DNA of 64,000 nt from Smithella sp. (GCA_039679455.1 JBDKUX010000093.1:3879-67878); one strand, 5' to 3'. Shown: positions 13,371 to 27,926, counted from the stretch's first letter. Translations and numbers: made by a program. The notes: generated by a model not told the origin, from the sequence alone.

Positions 13371-13508
13371 CAGGATAATAGCCTGTTAGGCTGTAGATTG
13401 TTAAGAGATACAAAGACATTTTTTAATGACACATGAGCAGAAGATCGGAAGTGCAATAAAATTTCATCGGGGCTGAACTTATGCCCGATTATACAAGGAG
13501 CTTACATT

Positions 13509-14687
13509 ATGGCAGGTGCAGAGGTATTTGACAGTGAAGAAATAAAGGCGATGGCGGATGTCATCGAAAGAAAAATGATTCATAGGTATGGTTCGCACGC
13601 GATGAGAAACGGACAGTATCGAGTGGATGAATTTGAGGACAAGGTGAAGGCCATTACCGGCGCAAAATTCGCACTCGGCGTTTCCAGCGGCACAGCGGCG
13701 CTAATCGTTGCGCTCAAGGGCATAGGCATTCAGTCTGGCGATGAAGTCATTACAACTCCGTTCACATTCATTGCAACAATAGAAGCCATTGTCGCCTGCG
13801 ATGCGGTTCCGATCCTCGCGGATATTGACGAAACGCTGAGCCTTGACGCGGCTTCCGTCGAAAAACTTATTACGCCGAGAACGAAGGCAATTATGCCCGT
13901 GCACATGTTCGGGGTTGCAGCTGATATGGATAAGTTTATGGCGCTCAGTGAAAAATACAACATACCCATCATTGAAGACGCCTGCGAAGTGGTCGGTGGA
14001 ACTTATAAAGGCCGTTACCTCGGCACGCTGAGCAAATGCGGTACATGGAGCTTTGATCCCAATAAAACCCTTACCGTCGGCGAAGGCGGCATCATTCTCA
14101 CCGACGATGAAGCGGTTTACAGTAAAATGGAATACTACCATGACCACGGACATGTCCACAGTAAGCAGCACGACCGCGGGGCGGATGCAAAATCAGGTCT
14201 GGGCGTCAACTACCGGTTAAGCGAAATACAGGGGGCGCTGGGGCTTGTGGCGATGAATAAAATGCCGACAGCTCTGGGATTGCTGCGGGCAACGAAAAAG
14301 AAAATCCTTGACGCCGTGGCGGATACAGGCATTCGGCCGCGTCCCATGAACGATAGCGAAGGCGACACGGCAACCCATGTCATCTTCCTTCTGCCCACAG
14401 CCGAAGCCGCGAAAAAATTCCAGGCCGCCACTAAAGAAGCCGGCTCCCCTGCTGCGATCATCGCGGAAAACACATGGCATTATGCGAAACACTGGCAGGC
14501 GCTTGAAGATATGGGAAATAAAGATTACTTCGGCACGAAGACTCCTTCTTACGCGCCGCAAACCATGGTCAAAAGCGATGCTATCCTGAGCCGCGCCGTC
14601 ATGTTCGGGCTCAACATTATTATGGATGATGCTTCCGTAAATAAAATTATCTCGGCGATAAAAGCGGGAGCAAAAGCTGTGCTTTAG
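13509..14687 (+). CDS. DegT/DnrJ/EryC1/StrS PLP aminotransferase, KdnA-like
   Basis: SSGTAAL, GDEVITTPFTF, IEDAC, SFDPNKTLTVGEGG, DHGH...DRG. Confidence 0.85.
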   Translation: MAGAEVFDSEEIKAMADVIERKMIHRYGSHAMRNGQYRVDEFEDKVKAITGAKFALGVSSGTAALIVALKGIGIQSGDEVITTPFTFIATIEAIVACDAVPILADIDETLSLDAASVEKLITPRTKAIMPVHMFGVAADMDKFMALSEKYNIPIIEDACEVVGGTYKGRYLGTLSKCGTWSFDPNKTLTVGEGGIILTDDEAVYSKMEYYHDHGHVHSKQHDRGADAKSGLGVNYRLSEIQGALGLVAMNKMPTALGLLRATKKKILDAVADTGIRPRPMNDSEGDTATHVIFLLPTAEAAKKFQAATKEAGSPAAIIAENTWHYAKHWQALEDMGNKDYFGTKTPSYAPQTMVKSDAILSRAVMFGLNIIMDDASVNKIISAIKAGAKAVL

Positions 14688-14710
14688 TAAAAACAAACAA
14701 TATAAACTTG

Positions 14711-14743
14711 AAAAACGGGCGAGTCCAAAAGACTCGCTCGAAT
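14711..14743. repeat. 33-bp terminator-like hairpin, copy 1
   Basis: AAAAACGGGCGAGTCCAAAAGACTCGCTCGAAT, 32/33 identical to 15707-15739. Confidence 0.85.
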
Positions 14744-14769
14744 TATGATTTCAATGTGTGAGGTTTTCA

Positions 14770-15675
14770 ATGTTAACAGATAATATTCTCAATCTGATCG
14801 GCAATACACCGCTTATCCAGCTCAAAAATTCACGTATCTTCGCCAAAGCTGAATTCCTGAATCCCGGAGGGAGCATAAAAGACCGGGTCGCATTATCGAT
14901 GCTGGAAGGAGCTGAGCGGGACGGGAAATTACATCCGGACACTATCATTGTGGAGCCGACCAGCGGGAACACCGGCATCGGCATAGCGCTTGTCGGACGC
15001 CTGAAAGGATACCGTGTCATCATCGTGATGCCCGAAAACATGAGTGATGAACGCAAAAAGCTCATCGGGGCGCTGGGCGCCGAATTGATTTTAACGCCGG
15101 CGGAAGAAAGCATCGGAGGAGCTGTGAAAAAAGTTGCTGAACTGGCGGCGGCGAATCCGAAAGTATTTGTGCCGCAGCAATTCGAAAATCCGGACAATCC
15201 ACGTGTGCACTACGAAGAAACCGCGCGCGAATTATGGCGTCAGATGAATGGTGTAATCGATTGTTTCGTCGCGGGAGTCGGCAGCGGCGGCACCCTCCAG
15301 GGCGTGGGAAAGTTTCTCAAGGAGCATCGGCCCGATGTCCGCATCGTAGCCGTAGAACCCAAAAATGTTTCCGCGCTGCTTGGCCATGAACCGGGTTTGC
15401 ACCAAATACAGGGTATAGGCGACGGTTTCATTCCCGCCGTGCTCGATGTCAAACTCGTCGACGAAGTTATCGAAGTTACCGACGAAGATGCCATCGAAAC
15501 AACACGTGAACTGGGGAGAAGCATGGGACTGCTAGTCGGCATTTCATCCGGAGCAAATGTCTGGGCCGCACGGCAGCTGGAAAAGAAATATCCGGGCAAT
15601 ATTGCCACGGTGCTTCCCGACCGCGCCGAACGGTATTTCAGCACGTCGCTGTTGAAATCCGGCAAGACAGAGTAG
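14770..15675 (+). CDS. cysK: cysteine synthase A
   Basis: KAEFLNPGGSIKDR, EPTSGNTG, GVGSGGT, HQIQGIG, GISSGAN. Confidence 0.92.
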   Translation: MLTDNILNLIGNTPLIQLKNSRIFAKAEFLNPGGSIKDRVALSMLEGAERDGKLHPDTIIVEPTSGNTGIGIALVGRLKGYRVIIVMPENMSDERKKLIGALGAELILTPAEESIGGAVKKVAELAAANPKVFVPQQFENPDNPRVHYEETARELWRQMNGVIDCFVAGVGSGGTLQGVGKFLKEHRPDVRIVAVEPKNVSALLGHEPGLHQIQGIGDGFIPAVLDVKLVDEVIEVTDEDAIETTRELGRSMGLLVGISSGANVWAARQLEKKYPGNIATVLPDRAERYFSTSLLKSGKTE

Positions 15676-15706
15676 CGGTATATAATGCCGGTAAAAATGT
15701 AAAATA

Positions 15707-15739
15707 AAAAACGGGCGAGTCCAAAAGACTCGCCCGAAT
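15707..15739 (-). terminator. intrinsic terminator for cstA; copy 2 of the 33-bp repeat
   Basis: Perfect 10-bp stem CGGGCGAGTC/GACTCGCCCG followed by a U-tract on the minus strand. Confidence 0.8.
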
Positions 15740-15769
15740 AGTACGCATCAGATCAAATTGAAAATATAT

Positions 15770-17527
15770 TTAGATGTTAATTTCTGCCGGTACAACACCT
15801 TTTCTTAATTCCTTCCATTTCCTGTAAGATAAAATTATTACACCTATGGAAAAAGTAATCAGTAATGCATCAACCACCGACAACATGATGTTATTCTTGG
15901 GAATGTATGTGTTAAAAAGTAGAGTCACAAGAGAATATAAAGTAGTCGCCATCATAAACAAAGCAGGCAGCACCGTGAACCAGGCATTCTTGTTTCTTTT
16001 TACCAGCCAAACGGAGACTGCGATTAACGCCAGTGCGGCCAGCAATTGATTGGCGGAGCCGAAGATAGGCCAGATCACCAGAAATGCATTATAGTAGGCA
16101 AGAACAAACATCAGAATTACGCAGAGCAGGGCGTTAAAAAGATAGGATTTCATTATCGCCGGGACTTTCTTGAAAATAACCTGCCACAGTTCTTCAAACA
16201 AGTATCTATTTAACCGAACTGCCGTATCCAGCGTTGTAACAACGAAACCTTCCACCAGCAGAATTCCAAAAATAGTGCCGTAAACCGGAGGTATTCCTAA
16301 TCCCTTATCCAGCAAACCGCCTGCTCCGGCGGCAAAGGCCAGAATGGGATTTGATTTGGTTCCGGCGATTGTCGGGAATACGATGTTGCTGTAATCCGTA
16401 AAGGCAATACCGCATCCGACCGCAACCAGAACACCGATAGCCAGCAAGCCTTCCAACATCATTCCGCCGTACGCAATTTTTTTAATATCCGTCTCTTTGG
16501 ATATCTGCTTCGAGGATGTGCCGCCGGCAACCAGACAATGAAAGCCGGAAATGGCTCCGCAGGCAACCGTGATGAATAAAAACGGCCAGAGCGCGCCTAA
16601 CTTGTTCGTTCCGGCCGCAACATTAAACGCCGGTGCGGAAAAGGTAACCCCTTTAAAGCCGGCGACTATACCGGCTATAAAGAGTGCGGCAATGCCGGCA
16701 TAAAGAAGGAATGAATTGGTAAAGTCACGCGGTTGCAGGATAATCCAAACAGGAATACCCGCCGCCAGCAGAGTATAGAAAGAAAGTATGATCATCCAGG
16801 CGGTTGTGTTTATCGCAATCGGGAAATTCATCCCAAAAATAATAGAACCGATACAGACCAGAATCGCCAATAGAGATGCAAGGTAAACATTGATTTCTTT
16901 TTTATAAACCAGGTAGCCGATAAGAGGCGCAAAGCAGGTTATGAAAATGACGGAAGCCGAGGCGATGCCACCGATCTGCGCTTTGGCAACCCCTTTTACC
17001 ATAACGGTCTTCACTATAGTTTGGGAAGGAGCCAGCTTCAGAATATCCAGGGGCAAGAGAGACGTTAATGCTGTTGCCGTTAAACCCAGAAACGCCGACG
17101 TAACCAGCAAAAGCATAACGGTGGTGAAACTAATAAATAAAAAAAATCCTGTGTTTCCCAGAGTCGCTTTGGCTATTTCCGAAATGGACTTGCCTTTCTC
17201 CCGGACACTGGCGAAAAGCGCCGTCATGTCATGCACTGCGCCGATAAAAATGCTTCCCACAACACACCACAACCATACGGGCATAAATCCAAACAGCAGC
17301 GCCACGGTAGGGCCGATGATCGGGCCGCCACCGGCAATGCTGGCGAAATGATGACCGAATAAAACAATTGGCTTTGTCGGAACGTAATCACAATCATCCT
17401 TCATCGAACACGCCGGTGTTATATTCTTATCGCTTTCATCGAATATCCCGGCAATGTATTTCCCATAAATACGAAAACCTAAATAAAATATGACTGCTGC
17501 TATTATCAATAATACTGCGGCGTTCAT
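15770..17527 (-). CDS. cstA: carbon starvation protein A family transporter
   Basis: DYVPT, LFGHHFASIAGGGPIIGP, LQPRDF, ACGAISGFH, TTLDTAVRL, WPIFGSANQLLA. Confidence 0.92.
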   Translation of the reverse strand: MNAAVLLIIAAVIFYLGFRIYGKYIAGIFDESDKNITPACSMKDDCDYVPTKPIVLFGHHFASIAGGGPIIGPTVALLFGFMPVWLWCVVGSIFIGAVHDMTALFASVREKGKSISEIAKATLGNTGFFLFISFTTVMLLLVTSAFLGLTATALTSLLPLDILKLAPSQTIVKTVMVKGVAKAQIGGIASASVIFITCFAPLIGYLVYKKEINVYLASLLAILVCIGSIIFGMNFPIAINTTAWMIILSFYTLLAAGIPVWIILQPRDFTNSFLLYAGIAALFIAGIVAGFKGVTFSAPAFNVAAGTNKLGALWPFLFITVACGAISGFHCLVAGGTSSKQISKETDIKKIAYGGMMLEGLLAIGVLVAVGCGIAFTDYSNIVFPTIAGTKSNPILAFAAGAGGLLDKGLGIPPVYGTIFGILLVEGFVVTTLDTAVRLNRYLFEELWQVIFKKVPAIMKSYLFNALLCVILMFVLAYYNAFLVIWPIFGSANQLLAALALIAVSVWLVKRNKNAWFTVLPALFMMATTLYSLVTLLFNTYIPKNNIMLSVVDALLITFSIGVIILSYRKWKELRKGVVPAEINI

Positions 17528-17600
17528 GTCCCTCCCCCTCAAATCACCATATTCCGGGAAAAAACCCGGTTTTTGGTAAACCGTGGTTTAACCGGTCGAA

Positions 17601-17629
17601 ACTATAGGGAGCGCACACGTGGATGTCAA
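17601..17629 (-). promoter_or_regulatory. sigma70 promoter of cstA
   Basis: TTGACA-17 nt-TATAGT on the minus strand. Confidence 0.7.
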
Positions 17630-17961
17630 TCAAAAAATGCATGGGAAAAGACACAACAGAAATCAGGAGATAAAAAGATTATTTCCTTGACATTTCCTTG
17701 TTAATTTCGGAACAAAGCTTTGATTTTATTAAATAATTTTCCGTGGAGAGGGAAAATACGTATCCGAGCAAATCACATCTGAATTGTTGAAAGCTGCAGA
17801 ACAAATGGTTAAGTCGGGTACCCTGGTTGAGATTCGCCACTATTTGGCAGCATAGAACAACAATGGAATACGAGAGGTGTGCAATTCTGTTAATGAGTAG
17901 AACCATTCTCATTAATTGCAACAAAGTCCTCTTACAACATTGTAGATTATTCCGACAGAAT

Positions 17962-19635
17962 TTAACTCACATCAAGTTCCAAACTGCCTTTTTTCACAGC
18001 GCGGACTGACTGGATAAACTTTGGCCACTCCAGTGTCCAATCAATATAGGTGCACATATCATCCATCAACTGGTCAACGATCTTGCGAATTGGTTCACGA
18101 AGGTCTGTCAATGTGTCGATTGTCAGCTTACGCTCTTTCAAGAGGCCCCAGCCAAGCCAATTTTCCGCCTCATCTTGAGATTTTAGTCCTGACAGAACTT
18201 CCTTAATATTATCTTTGTCACCACCTACCCAAAGCTCGGCAAAAGATTGACCTTTATTACATTTTAGTGATGACCATAGTTCGATAACCTTGTTGATACG
18301 CTTAATGGCGATTTTTTCTAATTCTTTTTTTAATTCGCCCCGGTCCGATTTTTCAAAGATGCCCCGCTTCAAAGCTTTCTCGAGGGTAGCCACGAAGGGA
18401 CTTTGAACTTTTGGTGCGGGAGGCTCGCCGCGGATCCAAGCATCTACCAGGATACCCCAAAACAGCGTAGGAATATATACACCCAGTGCATAAGGTCGGA
18501 GGTTCCCTTGGCCTGCCAGGATACGATCTTTGAACACTTCGGCGTCGGGATGCCGAGAAGGCTCGACATCTCCATTACGACTATGAATTATACTTCTTAC
18601 TTTCGAGAAATGACCCAACGCGCGATGGAGTTCGTATTTCAAATGATCGTCGATCCACATCACGTTCTGCCGAAAATTACTGAAGGGCGGAAGGTCAAGA
18701 ATTGCACCCTCACTGATTACCAGTCCCGCTCCTGAAACCACTGATAGACGCGGATTACTTCCCAAGCGTTGCAATCCCTTATCAGGATCATCTGGACTAT
18801 CCAGACCGTAGTATTTTATCATCGTGTTGCAATCAAAAAGATTATTTTCATAATCGCTAAGAAGTTTCTCGGTAAGCTCTCCATCTTTTTTCTCTTTGTT
18901 GTTTGCGTTTTCGTTAAGAATTCTGATGGCGTTTTGATTCAGTATCAATGCCGGGAACATGCGGGTCGCGAAAGCAGTATTGAAATCATTGATGTCCCAT
19001 TCGCAGATTGATTTGTCTTTTGGTTGTGTATATGAGCCAGATATCATGTAGGAGTGAATACGGTGATCAACTGATAACTCATTACAGTACTTAGTTATAT
19101 CACGCGTAACCACATCCAATAATCTTTTGTCCAAGGTATTGTCGCTTAGAAGAGCATCCCAGTCCATGCGCAGCACCGGTATCCCGGAACCCAAATGCCG
19201 CACACGAATGATTGCCTCGGCTACCTTCGTCGTATCATATCGAACACCGGGATCATTCCCAACCAAGAAGTTTTTAAGTCGGGTTGCTTCCAACCCTGGC
19301 TTATTTCCGCGCAGGTTGTTGAGGATGGGATTTAGGGTTTTCGCCGTCACCAATCGTAATCGGTCTTTAAGGTCAGTTTTCAGTTTCTTTACCCTTTTCT
19401 CAATCTCGTCAATTCTATAGAATTCCTCGGCCATCTTAACTGGATCAAAGTCGGTGCCGATTGTGTTCAGCAACGAAAGCCAACCGACGTCGAGGAATAC
19501 AACGAGCATTCCTGGGGCTTCTTGTGATTTAAGACATTCAGACAAGCGCGCTGCTTTTGAGTCAAGGAGATCCCAAGCTTTGTTATTGTAAGGTAGATGA
19601 GTAAACAGGATATACTTATACTGAAATTCAGACAT
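17962..19635 (-). CDS. hypothetical protein, 557 aa, putative divergent GT-A glycosyltransferase
   Basis: GAGG RBS; VLRMDWD (DxD after a hydrophobic strand), SGAGLVIS, LPPF...WIDD. Confidence 0.6.
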   Translation of the reverse strand: MSEFQYKYILFTHLPYNNKAWDLLDSKAARLSECLKSQEAPGMLVVFLDVGWLSLLNTIGTDFDPVKMAEEFYRIDEIEKRVKKLKTDLKDRLRLVTAKTLNPILNNLRGNKPGLEATRLKNFLVGNDPGVRYDTTKVAEAIIRVRHLGSGIPVLRMDWDALLSDNTLDKRLLDVVTRDITKYCNELSVDHRIHSYMISGSYTQPKDKSICEWDINDFNTAFATRMFPALILNQNAIRILNENANNKEKKDGELTEKLLSDYENNLFDCNTMIKYYGLDSPDDPDKGLQRLGSNPRLSVVSGAGLVISEGAILDLPPFSNFRQNVMWIDDHLKYELHRALGHFSKVRSIIHSRNGDVEPSRHPDAEVFKDRILAGQGNLRPYALGVYIPTLFWGILVDAWIRGEPPAPKVQSPFVATLEKALKRGIFEKSDRGELKKELEKIAIKRINKVIELWSSLKCNKGQSFAELWVGGDKDNIKEVLSGLKSQDEAENWLGWGLLKERKLTIDTLTDLREPIRKIVDQLMDDMCTYIDWTLEWPKFIQSVRAVKKGSLELDVS

Positions 19636-19842
19636 GCTCTCTTCCTCTTAAATTGGAAAGAAATGCAATCTATTTATGGAGACTCTGGATCATAGTGTAT
19701 TTTTAGGCTATCTTTTTTAATAAGGAATCACCTTCGCTTTTACATGTATGGGATGCGGCATTGTATGTCAAGAGAAACTTAATATATGACAAGCCGTAAA
19801 TTGTTCGGTAAATACTTAAATTATAGCAAATTATTGTGACTT

Positions 19843-21198
19843 TCAGATTCTTGGTCCTTTTGGGACCCAATTAATAGGGAGTACCTCGATTTCTCCGCTT
19901 TCCAGTACGTCAACGGTTTTCTTAATCAGGTTTTTTTCTATCGTACCTCCAACGACTATACTTTCGCTAATAGTAACATTTCTTCGGACTTCGTGTCTGT
20001 CCACTATTTTTCGTTCAGTCGCAGGAATCGTGATTCCTTGGTCATTTGTAAACGAATACCTTTTCCAGAGAACCGAGTTTTTGATGCGTGCACCACGCTC
20101 AATTGTCCATCCATCTCCAATGATGGCATAAGGACCGATTTCGGCATCAGGCTCGACAACACAGTCATTACCTATAACTACCGGCGGTACTATCTTTACT
20201 TTTGAAAAATCAATCGCCACATTTGTCCCAAGGTATCCCCATGGAAATTTTTCATAAGGGATATCAATGGGTATTTCATCGTCGAGGATCGATTTGTTCA
20301 CACTAAGATAGTCCGTCTTTCTACCTACATCGAACCATAATCCATCATATTCTAAACCCCATAAAACGCAATCCCTTGGAATAGATATGTAATCTATTTT
20401 ACCAAGCATGGCGGGGAACACATGTTTACCAAAATCATAAAATGCCCCTTCTATTCCCATTTTGGCTTCTGTTCTCAGTGGATCGATAATTTTTAGCAGG
20501 TCTTTTTCTATTATATACACAGATGCATTATTAAGATTGCTGGGCGAATTAGGATCTTTTTCAAAAAAGTTGGCAATTCTTCCTGATTTTGAGATGAAGC
20601 CATGCAATGTCTCCGGCGCTTCGAGTAGCACGGTGCCGAATTCAGCTCTTCTCTTCAAAGGAACAGGAGTGAGAAGAATTGTTAAAGCGGCACCTTTTTT
20701 TCTATGAATCTCATACATCTCTTCCAACATTGCTGTACTAAAATCGGTGACAATGTCACCGCTTGGGACAATTACTGATGTCCCATTGAATTCAGCGTTA
20801 GTGGTAACCTCTTCAATGTGAGAGACTCTTTTGGCATTTTTCCCGAGGGTCTGTTTACATATTCCACCAAGTGTTCCAGACGGAATCTCTTCCTCGACAT
20901 ATTCAATGTTTACACCGAATCTTGCACCATCTCTGAAGTAGCTCTTGATCGTATCCTTAAGAACAGACAAGTTCATGGAGATTTGGGTAATACCAGCTTC
21001 TACAGACTTTCTTACCCATAATTCCACCATCGGTGTACTTCCACCAAGCGGAAACATGGGCTTGGGAATGTGGTGAACTGTAAGTGGATCCATCCTTGTA
21101 CCTAAACCAGCTGCCAAAATGGCAACTTTAAGTTTCCCATTAACGCCTTTCTTATTAGTCCAACTCTTACTGAGATAATCCTCCAAATCTATAGGCAT
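19843..21198 (-). CDS. NDP-sugar synthase (sugar-1-phosphate nucleotidyltransferase with left-handed beta-helix)
   Basis: ILAAGLGTRMDPLT..IPKPM, GTLGG, SGDIVTD, FFEK, DFGKHVFP, WFDVG, hexapeptide repeats. Confidence 0.88.
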   Translation of the reverse strand: MPIDLEDYLSKSWTNKKGVNGKLKVAILAAGLGTRMDPLTVHHIPKPMFPLGGSTPMVELWVRKSVEAGITQISMNLSVLKDTIKSYFRDGARFGVNIEYVEEEIPSGTLGGICKQTLGKNAKRVSHIEEVTTNAEFNGTSVIVPSGDIVTDFSTAMLEEMYEIHRKKGAALTILLTPVPLKRRAEFGTVLLEAPETLHGFISKSGRIANFFEKDPNSPSNLNNASVYIIEKDLLKIIDPLRTEAKMGIEGAFYDFGKHVFPAMLGKIDYISIPRDCVLWGLEYDGLWFDVGRKTDYLSVNKSILDDEIPIDIPYEKFPWGYLGTNVAIDFSKVKIVPPVVIGNDCVVEPDAEIGPYAIIGDGWTIERGARIKNSVLWKRYSFTNDQGITIPATERKIVDRHEVRRNVTISESIVVGGTIEKNLIKKTVDVLESGEIEVLPINWVPKGPRI

Positions 21199-21260
21199 TT
21201 TCCCTTGAATCCTTCATTTCACTTTTCGATATTGGATTGTCATTATTTTCGCATTCGAAT

Positions 21261-21491
21261 TTATTGGTTAATCTTGATTAAGAGGTTAGATAGCCGGGAA
21301 TACTCTTCTCCGTCACCATTGTAATCGTCACTCCGGCTGGTACCATAGTCACCAGGAAAATTATGGAAGCGCTGATTGTACTCCTCTTCATTTTCCATGA
21401 ATTGACTTTTAATTATTTTACGATAATTGGACAATGTCTCCAAAATAGCGGTTTCAATATCTAGTTGCTTAATATCGTTTCTTTTCTTCAT
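21261..21491 (-). CDS. small hypothetical peptide, ~76 aa
   Basis: ORF co-oriented with and 62 bp upstream of the NDP-sugar synthase, downstream of a good sigma70 promoter; no clear RBS. Confidence 0.45.
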   Translation of the reverse strand: MKKRNDIKQLDIETAILETLSNYRKIIKSQFMENEEEYNQRFHNFPGDYGTSRSDDYNGDGEEYSRLSNLLIKINQ

Positions 21492-21546
21492 AATTTTTTT
21501 CAATCGATCTTAATATTGATAATGACTTGTTTTCTTACTCGTGGAG

Positions 21547-21575
21547 AGGATAGGAGAATCGATTTTGTATGTCAA
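21547..21575 (-). promoter_or_regulatory. sigma70 promoter of the islet cassette
   Basis: TTGACA-17 nt-TATCCT on the minus strand. Confidence 0.55.
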
Positions 21576-22128
21576 GACAATTTATAACAAAAATGCTCAA
21601 TCGAGTGGCATACTTACCAATTTCAATATGAACGTGAAAAGAAGTGACTCTCCCTGACAAGGAAGCTAATCCACAATTCCAGTAAACAAAGAGAGCCAAG
21701 AGGTTCATCCTGCCAAAGTGCTGAACATAAAGCACAGAGAATTTCGCCTGACTGAATGACTTATTCCCAGAAATATTTGTTCCCTGTTTGCCCACAGGAA
21801 AGTGTAAGGCACTTTCCCTATTTTTATCGATTTGATTCGTGTAAAATCCTTCAATTTTTATATTATTATTGTCTCAACCTTCGCAGGAGCGAAATAATTG
21901 TAGCATGTTGTGCTGTAAGTGGGACCAAATAGTCAGAGATTGGAGCCAGGTCTTGATGCGTAGGTATATTACTGAAGCTACGCCGGTTCTGGATTACCCG
22001 GTCGCGAGACTGTGTCGTAATTGTCTTTGCACACAATCTTTGCATGCTCTTTGACAAAAGAATATTAGAAATTGGTTAAGAAATAAAAAAGCCGTATATT
22101 TCTTAAGGCAAAGACATTGTGTTTCAAC

Positions 22129-23460
22129 CTAAATGGATTGTCGTATTGCCTTCATGTGATCAATTCTCTTTTGTATCAGTGCATTGGTGCCGATGTCTTC
22201 GCGGTAGGCGACAGGTCCTTTCACGGCTTTGACGCCTTCTTCGGCGATTTTGCGGGCTTCATCCAGCGTGTCGGCGATGCCGACGATGCCGATGGCGCGC
22301 GAAGAACTCAGATACAGGCCGTCTTCCTTCTTATCCACGGAAGAATAGTAAAGTCTTGCTTTTCCCACGTCACCCACTTCAATCTTTGCTTTGGATGACG
22401 CCGCGTCGGGATGATCGGCGGGGAGCCCATAGCCTTTGGGAACAACATATTTGCAGACGGTTGCTTTGGATTCAAATTCGATTTTCAACTTATCGAGTGT
22501 GCCGTTGATGATGTGTCGGCAGATGCTGACAAAATCAGTTTTCAAAAGCGGCAGGATGTTCATGGCTTCAGGGTCTCCGAAACGCGCGTTGTATTCCAGG
22601 AGCTTCGCGCCGTTTTTCGTGGCGATGAATCCGCCGTACATGACGCCTTTATAGGGGCTGCCGGTTTCTTTTAAAAGCGCCGCTGCGACCTGACGGGTAA
22701 TCTCCAGGCCTTCTTCAATATCCGAAGGCTTCAGAAAGGGCATGGAGTGATCGGACAGGGAATAGGAGCCCATACCGCCCGTGTTGGGACCCTTGTCACC
22801 GTCAAAGCGCCGTTTGTGATCCTGGACCAGCGGCGTGCCGACAACGGTTTTACCGTCGCACAGACACTGCAGCGAAAACTCTTCGCCGTCAAACTTTTCC
22901 TCGACGATGACGGAGGAACTGTCTTGCAGAATCTGGGCGCATAAGTTCATCGCTTCTTCTTTTGTTGTGAAGTGATCACCCTGTACAAGAACGCCTTTGC
23001 CGCCGGTGAGTCCATCCGGTTTCAGCACAATGCCGTCGAGGAAATTCAAAAACGCCTCCACTCCTTCCATGGAGGTAAAGACTTTATACTGTGGATTGCC
23101 GGGAATATTATATTTATTGACCAGATCGCGGGTAAACGATTTGGATGTTTCCAGGCGCGCCAGACTTTTATTGGGGCCGACAGCGGGAATGCCGACTTGT
23201 GCCAGCGCATCCACGACGCCGTTATTCAGCGGATCTTCCGGACCGATAATGGCCAGTTCAATTTTATTTTCCCGGGCAAAAAGGGTAATTGCTGCCAGAT
23301 CGGCGTAGCCGCCGATTTTTGTTTGTTCCGACAGTGATGCGATGCCAGGGTTGTTTGCTTTCATGTAAGAAAATAATAGCGGTTTTTCCGCCGAGCGCAT
23401 AATAGCTTCCGCCATGGCATGCTCGCGGGCGCCGTTGCCGACTAGAAGTATGTTGGGCAT
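22129..23460 (-). CDS. purD: phosphoribosylamine-glycine ligase
   Basis: GNGAREHA, IGPEDPL, LETSKSF, KPDGLTGGKGV, QDHKR, GPNTGGMG, EYNARFGDPE. Confidence 0.95.
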   Translation of the reverse strand: MPNILLVGNGAREHAMAEAIMRSAEKPLLFSYMKANNPGIASLSEQTKIGGYADLAAITLFARENKIELAIIGPEDPLNNGVVDALAQVGIPAVGPNKSLARLETSKSFTRDLVNKYNIPGNPQYKVFTSMEGVEAFLNFLDGIVLKPDGLTGGKGVLVQGDHFTTKEEAMNLCAQILQDSSSVIVEEKFDGEEFSLQCLCDGKTVVGTPLVQDHKRRFDGDKGPNTGGMGSYSLSDHSMPFLKPSDIEEGLEITRQVAAALLKETGSPYKGVMYGGFIATKNGAKLLEYNARFGDPEAMNILPLLKTDFVSICRHIINGTLDKLKIEFESKATVCKYVVPKGYGLPADHPDAASSKAKIEVGDVGKARLYYSSVDKKEDGLYLSSSRAIGIVGIADTLDEARKIAEEGVKAVKGPVAYREDIGTNALIQKRIDHMKAIRQSI

Positions 23461-26190: not shown

Positions 26191-26952
26191 ATGACGGACA
26201 ATAAATTTTGTGCATTGATTTTAGCTGCGGGCAAAGGCACCCGCATGAAATCGGATTTAGCTAAAGTGCTTCATATCCTGGAAGGAAAACCCCTGCTCGA
26301 TTATTCCCTTGCCGCTGCTAAGCTCGCCGGGGCGGAAAAAATTGTGGTGATTGTAGGCCATCAGGCCGAAGTGGTTAAAAAGGAATTTGCCGGCTCAGGA
26401 GCTGTTTTCGTGGAGCAAAACCCGCAATTGGGTACAGGTCACGCGGTCTTGCAGGCCAAAGATGTACTGGCGGATTACTCCGGTTTGACTGTTATTCTTT
26501 GCGGTGATGTGCCCCTGCTCAAGCCGGCCACTATTTCGGGATTGATTGAAAATCATCGGGCATCCGGAGCGCCGGTTACCGTACTGACAACATGTCCGGC
26601 TGATCCCCGGGGTTATGGACGGATTGTAAAAGATGCTCATGGAAATGTTTCCAAAATTGTTGAGGAACGGGACGCCACTGCTGCGGAAAAAAGCATCGAC
26701 GAGATAAATACCGGAATTTATTGTGTAGATACACCTTTTCTGTTTGCCGCCTTAGGGAAAATAACCAACGATAACAGTCAGCAGGAATACTATTTGACGG
26801 ATATTGTCGAAATTGCCTGCCGTGAGGGATTTACAGTTCGATCACACATTGCCCCGGACTATGTCGAAGTAATGGGCATTAATACACCGGAAGAATTGGC
26901 CAGAGCGGGTCGGCATCTGCAAGATAATCGAAAGAATCCGGTTTTTCTGTGA
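26191..26952 (+). CDS. GlcNAc-1-P uridyltransferase (GlmU N-terminal domain only)
   Basis: LAAGKGTRMKS..KVLH, QLGTGHAV, GDVP, GYGRIV, EINTG, EYYLTD; ends before the acetyltransferase domain. Confidence 0.88.
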   Translation: MTDNKFCALILAAGKGTRMKSDLAKVLHILEGKPLLDYSLAAAKLAGAEKIVVIVGHQAEVVKKEFAGSGAVFVEQNPQLGTGHAVLQAKDVLADYSGLTVILCGDVPLLKPATISGLIENHRASGAPVTVLTTCPADPRGYGRIVKDAHGNVSKIVEERDATAAEKSIDEINTGIYCVDTPFLFAALGKITNDNSQQEYYLTDIVEIACREGFTVRSHIAPDYVEVMGINTPEELARAGRHLQDNRKNPVFL

Positions 26953-27926
26953 TTAGCATAATTCGTTCATTATCGGGCAAAGCACTTTTGGCGCCGCTCG
27001 CAGGTATTACCAACTTGCCTTTTCGTTTGATTACCCGATCTTTCGGTTGTGCGCTGGCCTACACGGAAATGGTCAGTGCCAACGGTCTTACCCGGAATAC
27101 GGAAAAAACCTTTGAATACCTGCAATCCTGTGCTGAAGATAAGCCTCTGAGCATACAGATTTTCGGCGCCGATTCGCAATTAATGGCCCGGGCGGCATGC
27201 ATTGCAGTTGAACATGGCGCCGATTTAATTGACATCAACATGGGATGCCCGGTGAAAAAAGTTGTTAAAACCGGAGCCGGAGCCATGCTGATGAAAGATC
27301 CCGGAGCTGTTGCCCGGATTGTTGCCGCTGTTAAAAAAGCCGTTCCAATCCCTGTCACCGTGAAAATTCGGTCCGGCTGGAATCGCAGCTCAATAAATGC
27401 CGTCGAGATTGCCCGAATTGCCGAAGATTCGGGAGCTGATGCCGTGGCTGTTCATGGAAGGACTGCCGATCAGGGATACGGCGGGACGGCTGACTGGAAA
27501 ATTATCGAGGCAGTCAAGGAAGCCTTGCATATTCCGGTAATCGGCAACGGCGATATCTGGCAGCCGCAGGATGCGATCAGAATGATGACGCGGACATCCT
27601 GTGACGCCGTAATGGTGGGCAGAGGTGTGTTGGGCAATCCCTGGATATTTATGGGGATAAATCAATTGCTGGACGGAAAGCCGGAGGGCTGGATGCCCAG
27701 CTTGATGCAAAGGTATGAAATAATCAAGAAACACTGGTCAATGGAAGCTGAATTATGCGGCTCCCAGGCTGCGGCGAGAAATTTTCGCAAGCACTTGTTG
27801 TGGTACACAAAAGGATTGGAAGGATCCAGCCGGTTTCGTAATCTTGTTTCCGCCCTGCCGGATCGGGAAAGTATGCTGGTTGAACTTGATAAATATTTTC
27901 AATCACTGGCAAATGTTAATCTTTAA
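26949..27926 (+). CDS. dusB: tRNA-dihydrouridine synthase B
   Basis: LAPLAG, TEMVSA, DINMGCP, VKIRSGW, VHGRT, GNGDI. Confidence 0.9.
   Translation: MISIIRSLSGKALLAPLAGITNLPFRLITRSFGCALAYTEMVSANGLTRNTEKTFEYLQSCAEDKPLSIQIFGADSQLMARAACIAVEHGADLIDINMGCPVKKVVKTGAGAMLMKDPGAVARIVAAVKKAVPIPVTVKIRSGWNRSSINAVEIARIAEDSGADAVAVHGRTADQGYGGTADWKIIEAVKEALHIPVIGNGDIWQPQDAIRMMTRTSCDAVMVGRGVLGNPWIFMGINQLLDGKPEGWMPSLMQRYEIIKKHWSMEAELCGSQAAARNFRKHLLWYTKGLEGSSRFRNLVSALPDRESMLVELDKYFQSLANVNL

Follow-up and report, generated by a model that had tools for sequence, protein, structure and literature searches.

Transfer of glucose from UDP-glucose to DNA or protein is a known strategy in biological conflict, used by the alpha- and beta-glucosyltransferases of phage T4 together with host GalU, and by bacterial glucosylating toxins with the GT-A fold. 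GT4 glycosyltransferase domains, sometimes accompanied by TIR domains, have also been predicted to act as effectors in bacterial conflicts (Kaur et al. 2021, PMC8195603). Here we describe a locus in a 64,000-nucleotide stretch of DNA from Smithella sp. (GCA_039679455.1 JBDKUX010000093.1:3879-67878; hereafter the window, with positions counted from its first letter). A cassette between cstA and purD carries three open reading frames (ORFs) of the same orientation on the minus strand, in the order X557, NT451 and a small ORF. The ORF coordinates agree with the layout proposed in an initial annotation made from the sequence alone. Given the analyses presented below, we suggest that the two large genes probably encode an NDP-hexose (nucleoside diphosphate hexose) synthase, NT451, and a GT-A enzyme that uses NDP-hexose, X557.

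NT451 belongs to the nucleotidyltransferase family PF00483 (E 3.4e-25; 89.5 bits against a cut-off of 21.2), confirming the sugar-1-phosphate nucleotidyltransferase function first assigned to the 451-amino acid protein. Matches to the LbH and Hexapep models stayed under their cut-offs. Residues 28-35 read AAGLGTRM and contain the GxGTR signature, which we take to be a mark of nucleotidyltransferases. No NCBIfam equivalog (GalU, RmlA, GlmU, GlgC, ManC) reached its cut-off; the best scores were 116 bits for Arch_glmU, which requires 292, and 106 bits for man1P_GTase, which requires 440. The substrate is thus not assignable by homology. The nearest solved structure, 8x7s, is deposited as a UTP-glucose-1-phosphate uridylyltransferase (E 1.2e-35). 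Judged by its sequence, NT451 is predicted to be a hexose-1-phosphate nucleotidyltransferase of no assigned specificity, and its product is probably an NDP-hexose. We recovered 513 family members at E<=1e-40, with more than 100 at 58% identity or above and best relatives at 96, 88 and 86%, making this family larger and more conserved than that of X557.

The structure model of X557 (pLDDT, the predicted local distance difference test score, of 88) adopts the GT-A glycosyltransferase fold, a second structural comparison agrees, and the model contains a Rossmann-like alpha/beta/alpha nucleotide-binding core. The GT-A likeness suggested by the initial annotation is therefore carried by the predicted structure and not by the sequence: glycosyltransferase Pfam models matched 0/45 X-family members at E<=1, and X557 had no match in Pfam, NCBIfam or PADLOC. 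Because the top structure matches were tied, the fold gives X557 no family name. An Atlas search pointed to DUF6271 and GT2. We found no literature on DUF6271, and PF19787 had no match in the genome that carries the window (G000) nor in 14 control genomes, which leaves that result uninformative. The A1 profile retrieved just two chance matches from the PDB sequences.

Three motifs stand out in X557: RxDxD (R156, D158, D160), PPFSN (316-320) and WIDDHLK (327-333). The residues R156, D158, D160, P316-P317, S319-N320, W327, D329-D330 and K333 are invariant in an alignment of 45 sequences. D158 and D160 directly follow the strand formed by residues 154-157, in keeping with the GT-A pattern of a metal- and diphosphate-binding DxD behind the fourth core strand, and are conserved in 45/45 sequences and in 10/10 when fusion proteins are included. 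In the model, this predicted DxD lies at the position where GT-A enzymes hold the metal. The MtdL paper describes the same arrangement.

The proteins related to X557 are hypothetical proteins of roughly 600 amino acids, with 175 found at E<=1e-3 by a word-index search and 392 representative clusters among 1.84 billion by a profile search at the same threshold. Named records come from at least ten phyla, including Acidobacteriota, Chlorobiota, Chloroflexota, Nitrospirota, Omnitrophota, Armatimonadota, Gemmatimonadota, Bdellovibrionota, Cyanobacteriota, Ignavibacteriota and Pseudomonadota. The best relative of X557, P0002, shares 61% identity with it in BLASTP (65% in the tree alignment) and carries an HNH fusion; the divergence from nearest relatives is much greater for X557 than for NT451. 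In the literature listings searched, we found no description of the X family. Pairs of a nucleotidyltransferase and a glycosyltransferase are commonplace; the novelty here lies in the transferase family, which has no curated model and no PADLOC match, has repeatedly recruited donor-supply genes and occurs in fusions of immune type.

To compare gene neighbourhoods, we collected 98 X-family loci (25 genomic and 73 metagenomic). Flanking sequence of 1.5 kb or more is present on at least one side in 73 of them and on both sides in 42. Identical X proteins recur in seven groups, leaving about 89 distinct loci. After clustering of all ORFs, nucleotidyltransferases were the sole recurrent class of neighbour. 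A synthase adjoins X in 16/98 loci (15 times PF00483 and once PF01704, UDPGP) and lies within two genes in 18/98. In three further loci, two of them identical, a synthase is two genes away, and partial matches at the contig ends of L058 and L096 could add two more. The 451-amino acid type, 45-61% identical to NT451, occurs at L006, L007, L013, L014, L072, L102 and L115. Among eight neighbour proteins compared with NCBIfam, GalU scored above its cut-off in three (L019, L054, L080) and glucose-1-phosphate cytidylyltransferase in one (L025). As far as these sequence matches indicate, glucose-1-phosphate activation is the common denominator of the synthase neighbours.

We mapped the adjacency of synthases on a FastTree phylogeny of 95 rows, which left out X ORFs shorter than 450 amino acids. 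The 451-type adjacency requires at least six changes and the other types six to seven, and the labels are not more clustered than after shuffling (of 500 shuffles, 75 and 104, respectively, gave values as low). The many changes imply that the pairing formed or dissolved repeatedly, which speaks for a functional connection by way of the donor. The self-contained make-and-transfer module first proposed for this locus is upheld in part: it pairs a nucleotide-sugar synthase with a protein of GT-A fold, the pair is accessory, and a synthase is the only recurrent neighbour of X, but the linkage is facultative.

One subclade of six loci (L019:8845-10521, L074, L075, L076, L080, L085) has a protein of 500-560 amino acids without a Pfam match adjoining X, which stands between X and GalU wherever the flank is long enough. 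Atlas matched it to HAD-IIB/phosphomannomutase models with TM scores of 0.77-0.87, normalised by the matched model. By this structural likeness, the neighbour may be a phosphohexomutase that contributes to donor supply or a phosphatase of a two-step glycoside synthesis. This gene (558 amino acids) was considered as a paralogue of X and rejected (hhalign probability 0.1). Separately, the genes upstream of X in L101 and L116 had been candidates for a glycan cluster, but they encode aldehyde-oxidoreductase subunits and a di-haem peroxidase and reflect plain synteny between two close genomes.

Some members of the X family are fused to other domains, several of them of immune type. We scanned 38 members picked for length or distance and identified an N-terminal TIR_2 domain in P0181 (E 6.5e-19) and P0188 (E 1.5e-16; ORF L020:7407-9614), an N-terminal HNH domain in P0002 and P0230, a Trans_reg_C winged helix in P0165 and a C-terminal hexokinase domain in one member. 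The TIR, HNH and Trans_reg_C fusions keep the full X domain and its invariant residues. Between the two HNH fusions the linkers show homology (E 2.5e-8), and the linker of P0181, a TIR fusion, has at best a faint similarity to them (E 0.11); such linkers may resemble the adaptor domains of conflict systems. A word-index search gave no longer fused forms, which is weak evidence, and the profile search later found the fusions. Within the fusion proteins, only the TIR parts match PADLOC. Transposases flank X in L002 and L008; in the former, a Chloroflexota contig, two DDE_3 transposase genes enclose an X fragment of 200 amino acids with 54% identity to X557 (L002:190-3158).

The cassette is an accessory element of its genome. 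X557 was found in 1/41 genomes (G000 only), as was NT451 at E<=1e-20, and neither large gene was found in any of the 40 relatives, comprising 12 of the same genus, 12 more of the same family and 16 of the same order. In a DNA run from another study (X7), one contig joins position 17853 to 22152 and skips 4298 nucleotides (side 38, depth 10.4, 88% minimum likeness). This contig suggests an empty site, and that in some relatives cstA adjoins purD without the cassette; as a single contig, it is a hint and not a proof. The initial annotation had asked whether cstA and purD are adjacent in relatives, and besides this contig, cstA is at the spot in 0/7 same-genus genomes examined. At 17853/22152 we saw neither direct nor inverted terminal repeats, and the idea of mobile-element ends at the cassette borders was set aside.

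The variable region is wider than the block that the initial annotation had delimited and extends from purH to purD. The distance from the 3' end of purH (~13370) to that of purD (~22120-22150) is 0.44-4.3 kb in 7/7 same-genus genomes, against 8.75 kb here. Genes recognised by PADLOC occupy this spot in 3/7 of these genomes. In G002 it holds cysK, an AAA_15/AAA_21 ATPase (AriA, E 2.3e-32) and a DUF4435 protein (AriB, E 1e-11; L042:8573-10766). In G004 and G010 there is an AAA_14/DUF4143 protein matching the PADLOC candidate PDC-S01 (E 2.2e-52; L046:2405-3553, L047:1344-2570), along with an aldo-keto reductase, an EamA transporter and a PNPOx-like protein. The spot can be used for finding accessory or defence genes in the genus.

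Given the data above, we propose that X557 and NT451 form a two-gene module acquired horizontally. NT451 would convert a nucleoside triphosphate and a hexose-1-phosphate, most likely glucose-1-phosphate, to an NDP-hexose. X557, translated from its own Shine-Dalgarno sequence and possibly transcribed from its own promoter, would bind this donor via a divalent metal held by D158-x-D160 and move the hexose onto a cytoplasmic acceptor. The acceptor would be a macromolecule, DNA or protein, belonging either to an invader or to the infected cell, and the module would act in biological conflict as an anti-phage defence, with NT451 securing the supply of donor. The layout of the ORFs, the modelled fold with its motif, the accessory state, the hot spot, the recurring synthase neighbours, the fusions and the RNA-library contigs on both large genes are observations; the identity of the donor, the catalysis, the acceptor and the role in defence are what we infer. 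We lean towards a conflict role because of the hot spot, an occurrence that is patchy and horizontally scattered, the faster divergence of X compared with NT451, and the fusions to TIR, HNH or winged-helix domains. Taken as a whole, from the enzymatic core to a conflict role with a macromolecular acceptor, the statement is a tentative one that we consider plausible but short of probable. Of the targets suggested by the initial annotation, the defence option is strengthened somewhat by the hot spot and by fusions to TIR or HNH, and the small-glycoside option stands beside it. A more general version, which we regard as rather unlikely, is that the X family is a widespread single-protein anti-phage family, in which a GT-A enzyme would glucosylate DNA or a key protein of the invader using NDP-glucose, and to which some lineages would have added donor-supply genes (hexokinase, a phosphohexomutase-like HAD protein, a glucose-1-phosphate nucleotidyltransferase) or HNH, TIR or winged-helix parts. 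In that case, the variants with HNH or a winged helix would be a hint that glycosylation of DNA follows a mark-or-restrict logic.

Several observations weigh against a defence module. Most X genes have no adjoining synthase, many neighbours are housekeeping genes (such as dapF, ilvD, murF, glnS and dnaE), and the 451-amino acid family is found mostly without X. Searches that started from NT451 in two phylum samples recovered a match in 1/301 genomes (the centre genome itself) and in 2/401 (the centre genome and G499). The A1 profile finds no X gene in G499, though it is positive in G000, G041 and G043. Of five X-bearing genomes, three have a 451-type gene, once each and always beside X, but one of these three (G042, locus L007) is unpublished, and the X gene that accompanies the 451-type gene of G043 is fragmented. 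Fusions to TIR or HNH amount to four proteins among 392 clusters, of which the 38 chosen ones were scanned. No model of PADLOC-DB v2.0.0 matched X557, NT451 or the small ORF (0 at E<=0.1), consistent with the first impression that the arrangement is not a named system. In a PADLOC scan of 150 proteins within two genes of X at 77 loci, strong matches occurred at 5/77 loci, which point towards conflict but carry little weight alone: LmuB (L006), PDC-S41 (L012), a patatin-type phospholipase effector (L079), PDC-M60C (L119), and a type I methyltransferase fragment (MTase_I) with PDC-M34B/HEPN (L066). Relatives of the cassette were absent from viral_contigs and from BFVD (none at E<=0.001), and blastn and tblastn against plasmid and phage collections gave no match, so that an origin from a phage or plasmid was rejected. 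The deviation in GC (guanine plus cytosine) content is mild, at 40.8% for the block versus 45.6% for the genome, which ranks at the 7.5th percentile among 5485 equally long windows. The contrast is heightened by the GC-rich purD and purH (52-57%); the reported foreign composition of the block is thus weakly supported. The RNA-library contigs that cover the large genes (see below) may stem from DNA carry-over. Finally, an S6PP-like HAD neighbour (L117), an FGGY kinase neighbour (L088), the HAD-IIB neighbours and the hexokinase fusion suit metabolism equally well.

Two observations concern the loci just mentioned. In G499 (L126:6979-11215), the NT451 orthologue, 61% identical, lies between two paralogues of UDP-glucose/GDP-mannose dehydrogenase. 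In G043 (L013; G043:C5:629498-631640), the X gene breaks into two neighbouring frames, behind which comes a duplicated piece of the C-terminal part; it is probably a decaying copy.

The main rival to the conflict role is synthesis of a small-molecule glucoside, as in compatible-solute pathways, with NT451 making NDP-hexose and X557 passing the hexose on to glycerate, 3-phosphoglycerate or another small acceptor. The reaction could proceed in one step, as with mannosylglycerate synthase, or be followed by the action of a HAD phosphatase encoded elsewhere, and would represent an accessory stress-adaptation trait. Such a pathway is favoured by the links of the X family with HAD-IIB, hexokinase and kinase proteins and by the likeness of the X557 fold to glycosylglycerate synthases, but we consider it, on balance, rather unlikely. 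The remaining explanations are less likely than either conflict or glucoside synthesis. X557 might be a GT75-like enzyme of the MtdL or plant UAM type, which, instead of serving a foreign acceptor, would glycosylate itself on an arginine and convert the NDP-sugar from NT451 between its pyranose and furanose forms. GT75 mutases are among its closest known systems, but X557 does not show the combination of conserved DDD motif, autoglycosylated arginine and sequence similarity that marks that family. We regard this reading as improbable. We attach equally little probability to an ordinary enzyme of cell-envelope or storage glycans, adding hexose to a lipid-linked or polymeric glycan and captured by chance with a spare nucleotidyltransferase. 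X557 has no predicted membrane segment, the X gene usually stands alone in varied contexts and was not found in 40 relatives, and a Pfam scan of immediate neighbours (117 of 124 listed, after leaving out seven duplicates of identical loci) revealed no flippase, polymerase, export or lipid-carrier gene, and one PMT_2 protein. The cassette also lacks polysaccharide export and polymerase genes, as initially noted, and the wider variable region includes a DegT-family aminotransferase. More generally, the initial annotation had named three findings that would speak against its proposal, namely large genes that do not co-occur, ordinary lipopolysaccharide or exopolysaccharide loci, and a block present in all relatives; we observed none of them. 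Glycosylation of the small-ORF product, in the manner of ribosomally synthesized and post-translationally modified peptides (RiPPs), is scarcely credible, for although this ORF of 76 or 80 amino acids shares its orientation with both large genes and lies behind a promoter-like site, 0/98 X-family loci, including those of NT451 orthologues, contain a homologue (best tblastn E 0.29), it has no family match in Pfam, NCBIfam or PADLOC, and no conserved small ORF appears in the clustering of locus ORFs, so we dropped it as a RiPP precursor and as the peptide target first envisaged.

The small ORF is, on these comparisons, doubtful as a gene and probably not a component of the system. No RNA contigs map to it, though missing cover proves nothing. 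For the large genes, contigs from two RNA libraries, probably of the source study, match X557 at 19372-19568 and 19009-19158 with 0-1 differences, and NT451 in six pieces between 19933 and 21137 with 0 differences; others lie on cstA and purD. These contigs are a hint of expression. The DNA runs X5 and X7 do not cover most of X557, which likewise proves nothing. The features of the region are listed in Table 1.

Table 1. Positions of the cassette genes, their flanks and associated sites within the window.
Feature	Position	Strand	Description
X557	17962-19635	-	557 aa; soluble putative glycosyltransferase of GT-A fold, uncharacterised family
NT451	19843-21198	-	451 aa; sugar-1-phosphate nucleotidyltransferase, C-terminal left-handed beta-helix
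Small ORF	21261-21503	-	80 aa from TTG; 76 aa from ATG at 21491
cstA (flank)	15770-17542	-	PF02554, E 5e-145
purD (flank)	22129-23460	-	GARS domains
Cassette as insertion/deletion unit	17854-22151		X557, NT451, small ORF and 0.6 kb AT-rich upstream spacer
Promoter-like site	21547-21575	-	TTGACA-17 nt-TATCCT; consensus scan, 10/12 matches; upstream of small ORF and NT451
16-nt motif copy	19761-19776	-	15/16 nt (94%); direct-repeat family D13, other copy at 21565-21580
purH-purD variable region (hot spot)	13371-22128		holds degT, cysK, cstA and the cassette

X557 is preceded by a good Shine-Dalgarno sequence (GAGGAAG, 8 nucleotides 5' of the gene) and separated from NT451 by a spacer of 207 nucleotides. 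The promoter-like site is weak evidence, as 16 such sites were seen across the region against 11.3 expected. The D13 motif surrounds its -35 box and recurs within the NT451-X557 spacer, where the copy may be an internal promoter or operator. Rfam models gave nothing above threshold between 15000 and 24000 (a lone sub-threshold L20_leader, E 0.52, was taken as a chance match), and no tRNA was found in the window. Two further ORFs in the cassette spacers, at 17679-17924 (-, 81 amino acids) and 21535-21795 (-, 86 amino acids), are known from the ORF listing and are likely spurious. Within the variable region, a DegT/DnrJ/EryC1-family sugar aminotransferase gene (13509-14687, +, E 6e-80) may be a second, independent accessory nucleotide-sugar gene. 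It is missing in the closest relative, G002, in which the gap between purH and cysK is 75 bp. At 26191-27926 (+), a short NTP_transferase/IspD-like gene (253 amino acids) is followed by a dihydrouridine synthase gene, both downstream of two CNNM/CorC genes; the former is probably a core gene unrelated to the cassette. In another genome of the genus, G012, purD is in three consecutive pieces in different frames (C11:167217-168541; L037/L038), owing to frameshifts or assembly errors.

If the conflict role holds, this would be the first defence family based on a GT-A glycosyltransferase with its own nucleotide-sugar supply, and sugar transfer would join cleavage, nicotinamide adenine dinucleotide (NAD) depletion, ADP-ribosylation and base excision among the chemistries of bacterial immunity. 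Under a metabolic role too, X557 would found a glycosyltransferase family without a curated model, with a hint of NDP-glucose as donor that is directly testable in vitro. In the literature listings searched, we found no described defence system that pairs a glycosyltransferase with a UDP-glucose synthase. BapA, from the BapA/Brig3 preprint, is a hydrolase of the ASCH fold and unrelated.

Among known systems, the GT75 NDP-pyranose mutases (MtdL, 7xpu; rice UAM2, 8cid) are some of the closest to X557. The mannosyl- and glucosyl-3-phosphoglycerate synthases and mannosylglycerate synthases (GT55, GT81, GT78) show no sequence similarity to it; unlike these glycosyl-(phospho)glycerate systems, the cassette has no phosphatase, and relatives of X557 carry TIR and HNH fusions. 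PARIS (AriA/AriB) and PDC-S01, which occupy the same purH-purD site in sister species, consist of unrelated proteins and bear just on the usual content of the site. With the T4 glucosyltransferases and the glucosylating toxins, the proposed module would share the modification of DNA or a protein target from UDP-glucose in a conflict, and the reliance on a supply of that donor. The GT4 conflict systems have the GT-B fold and are usually fused to STAND NTPases, whereas X557 is predicted to be GT-A, and its family is mostly standalone and recruits donor-supply genes; both are computational predictions. That work is, in our analysis, a computational precedent for the idea and not for the X family. 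Like the X fusions, the GT4 systems described there combine a glycosyltransferase domain with TIR or other effectors in mobile counter-invader loci, and glycosylation of invader or host has been proposed for them.

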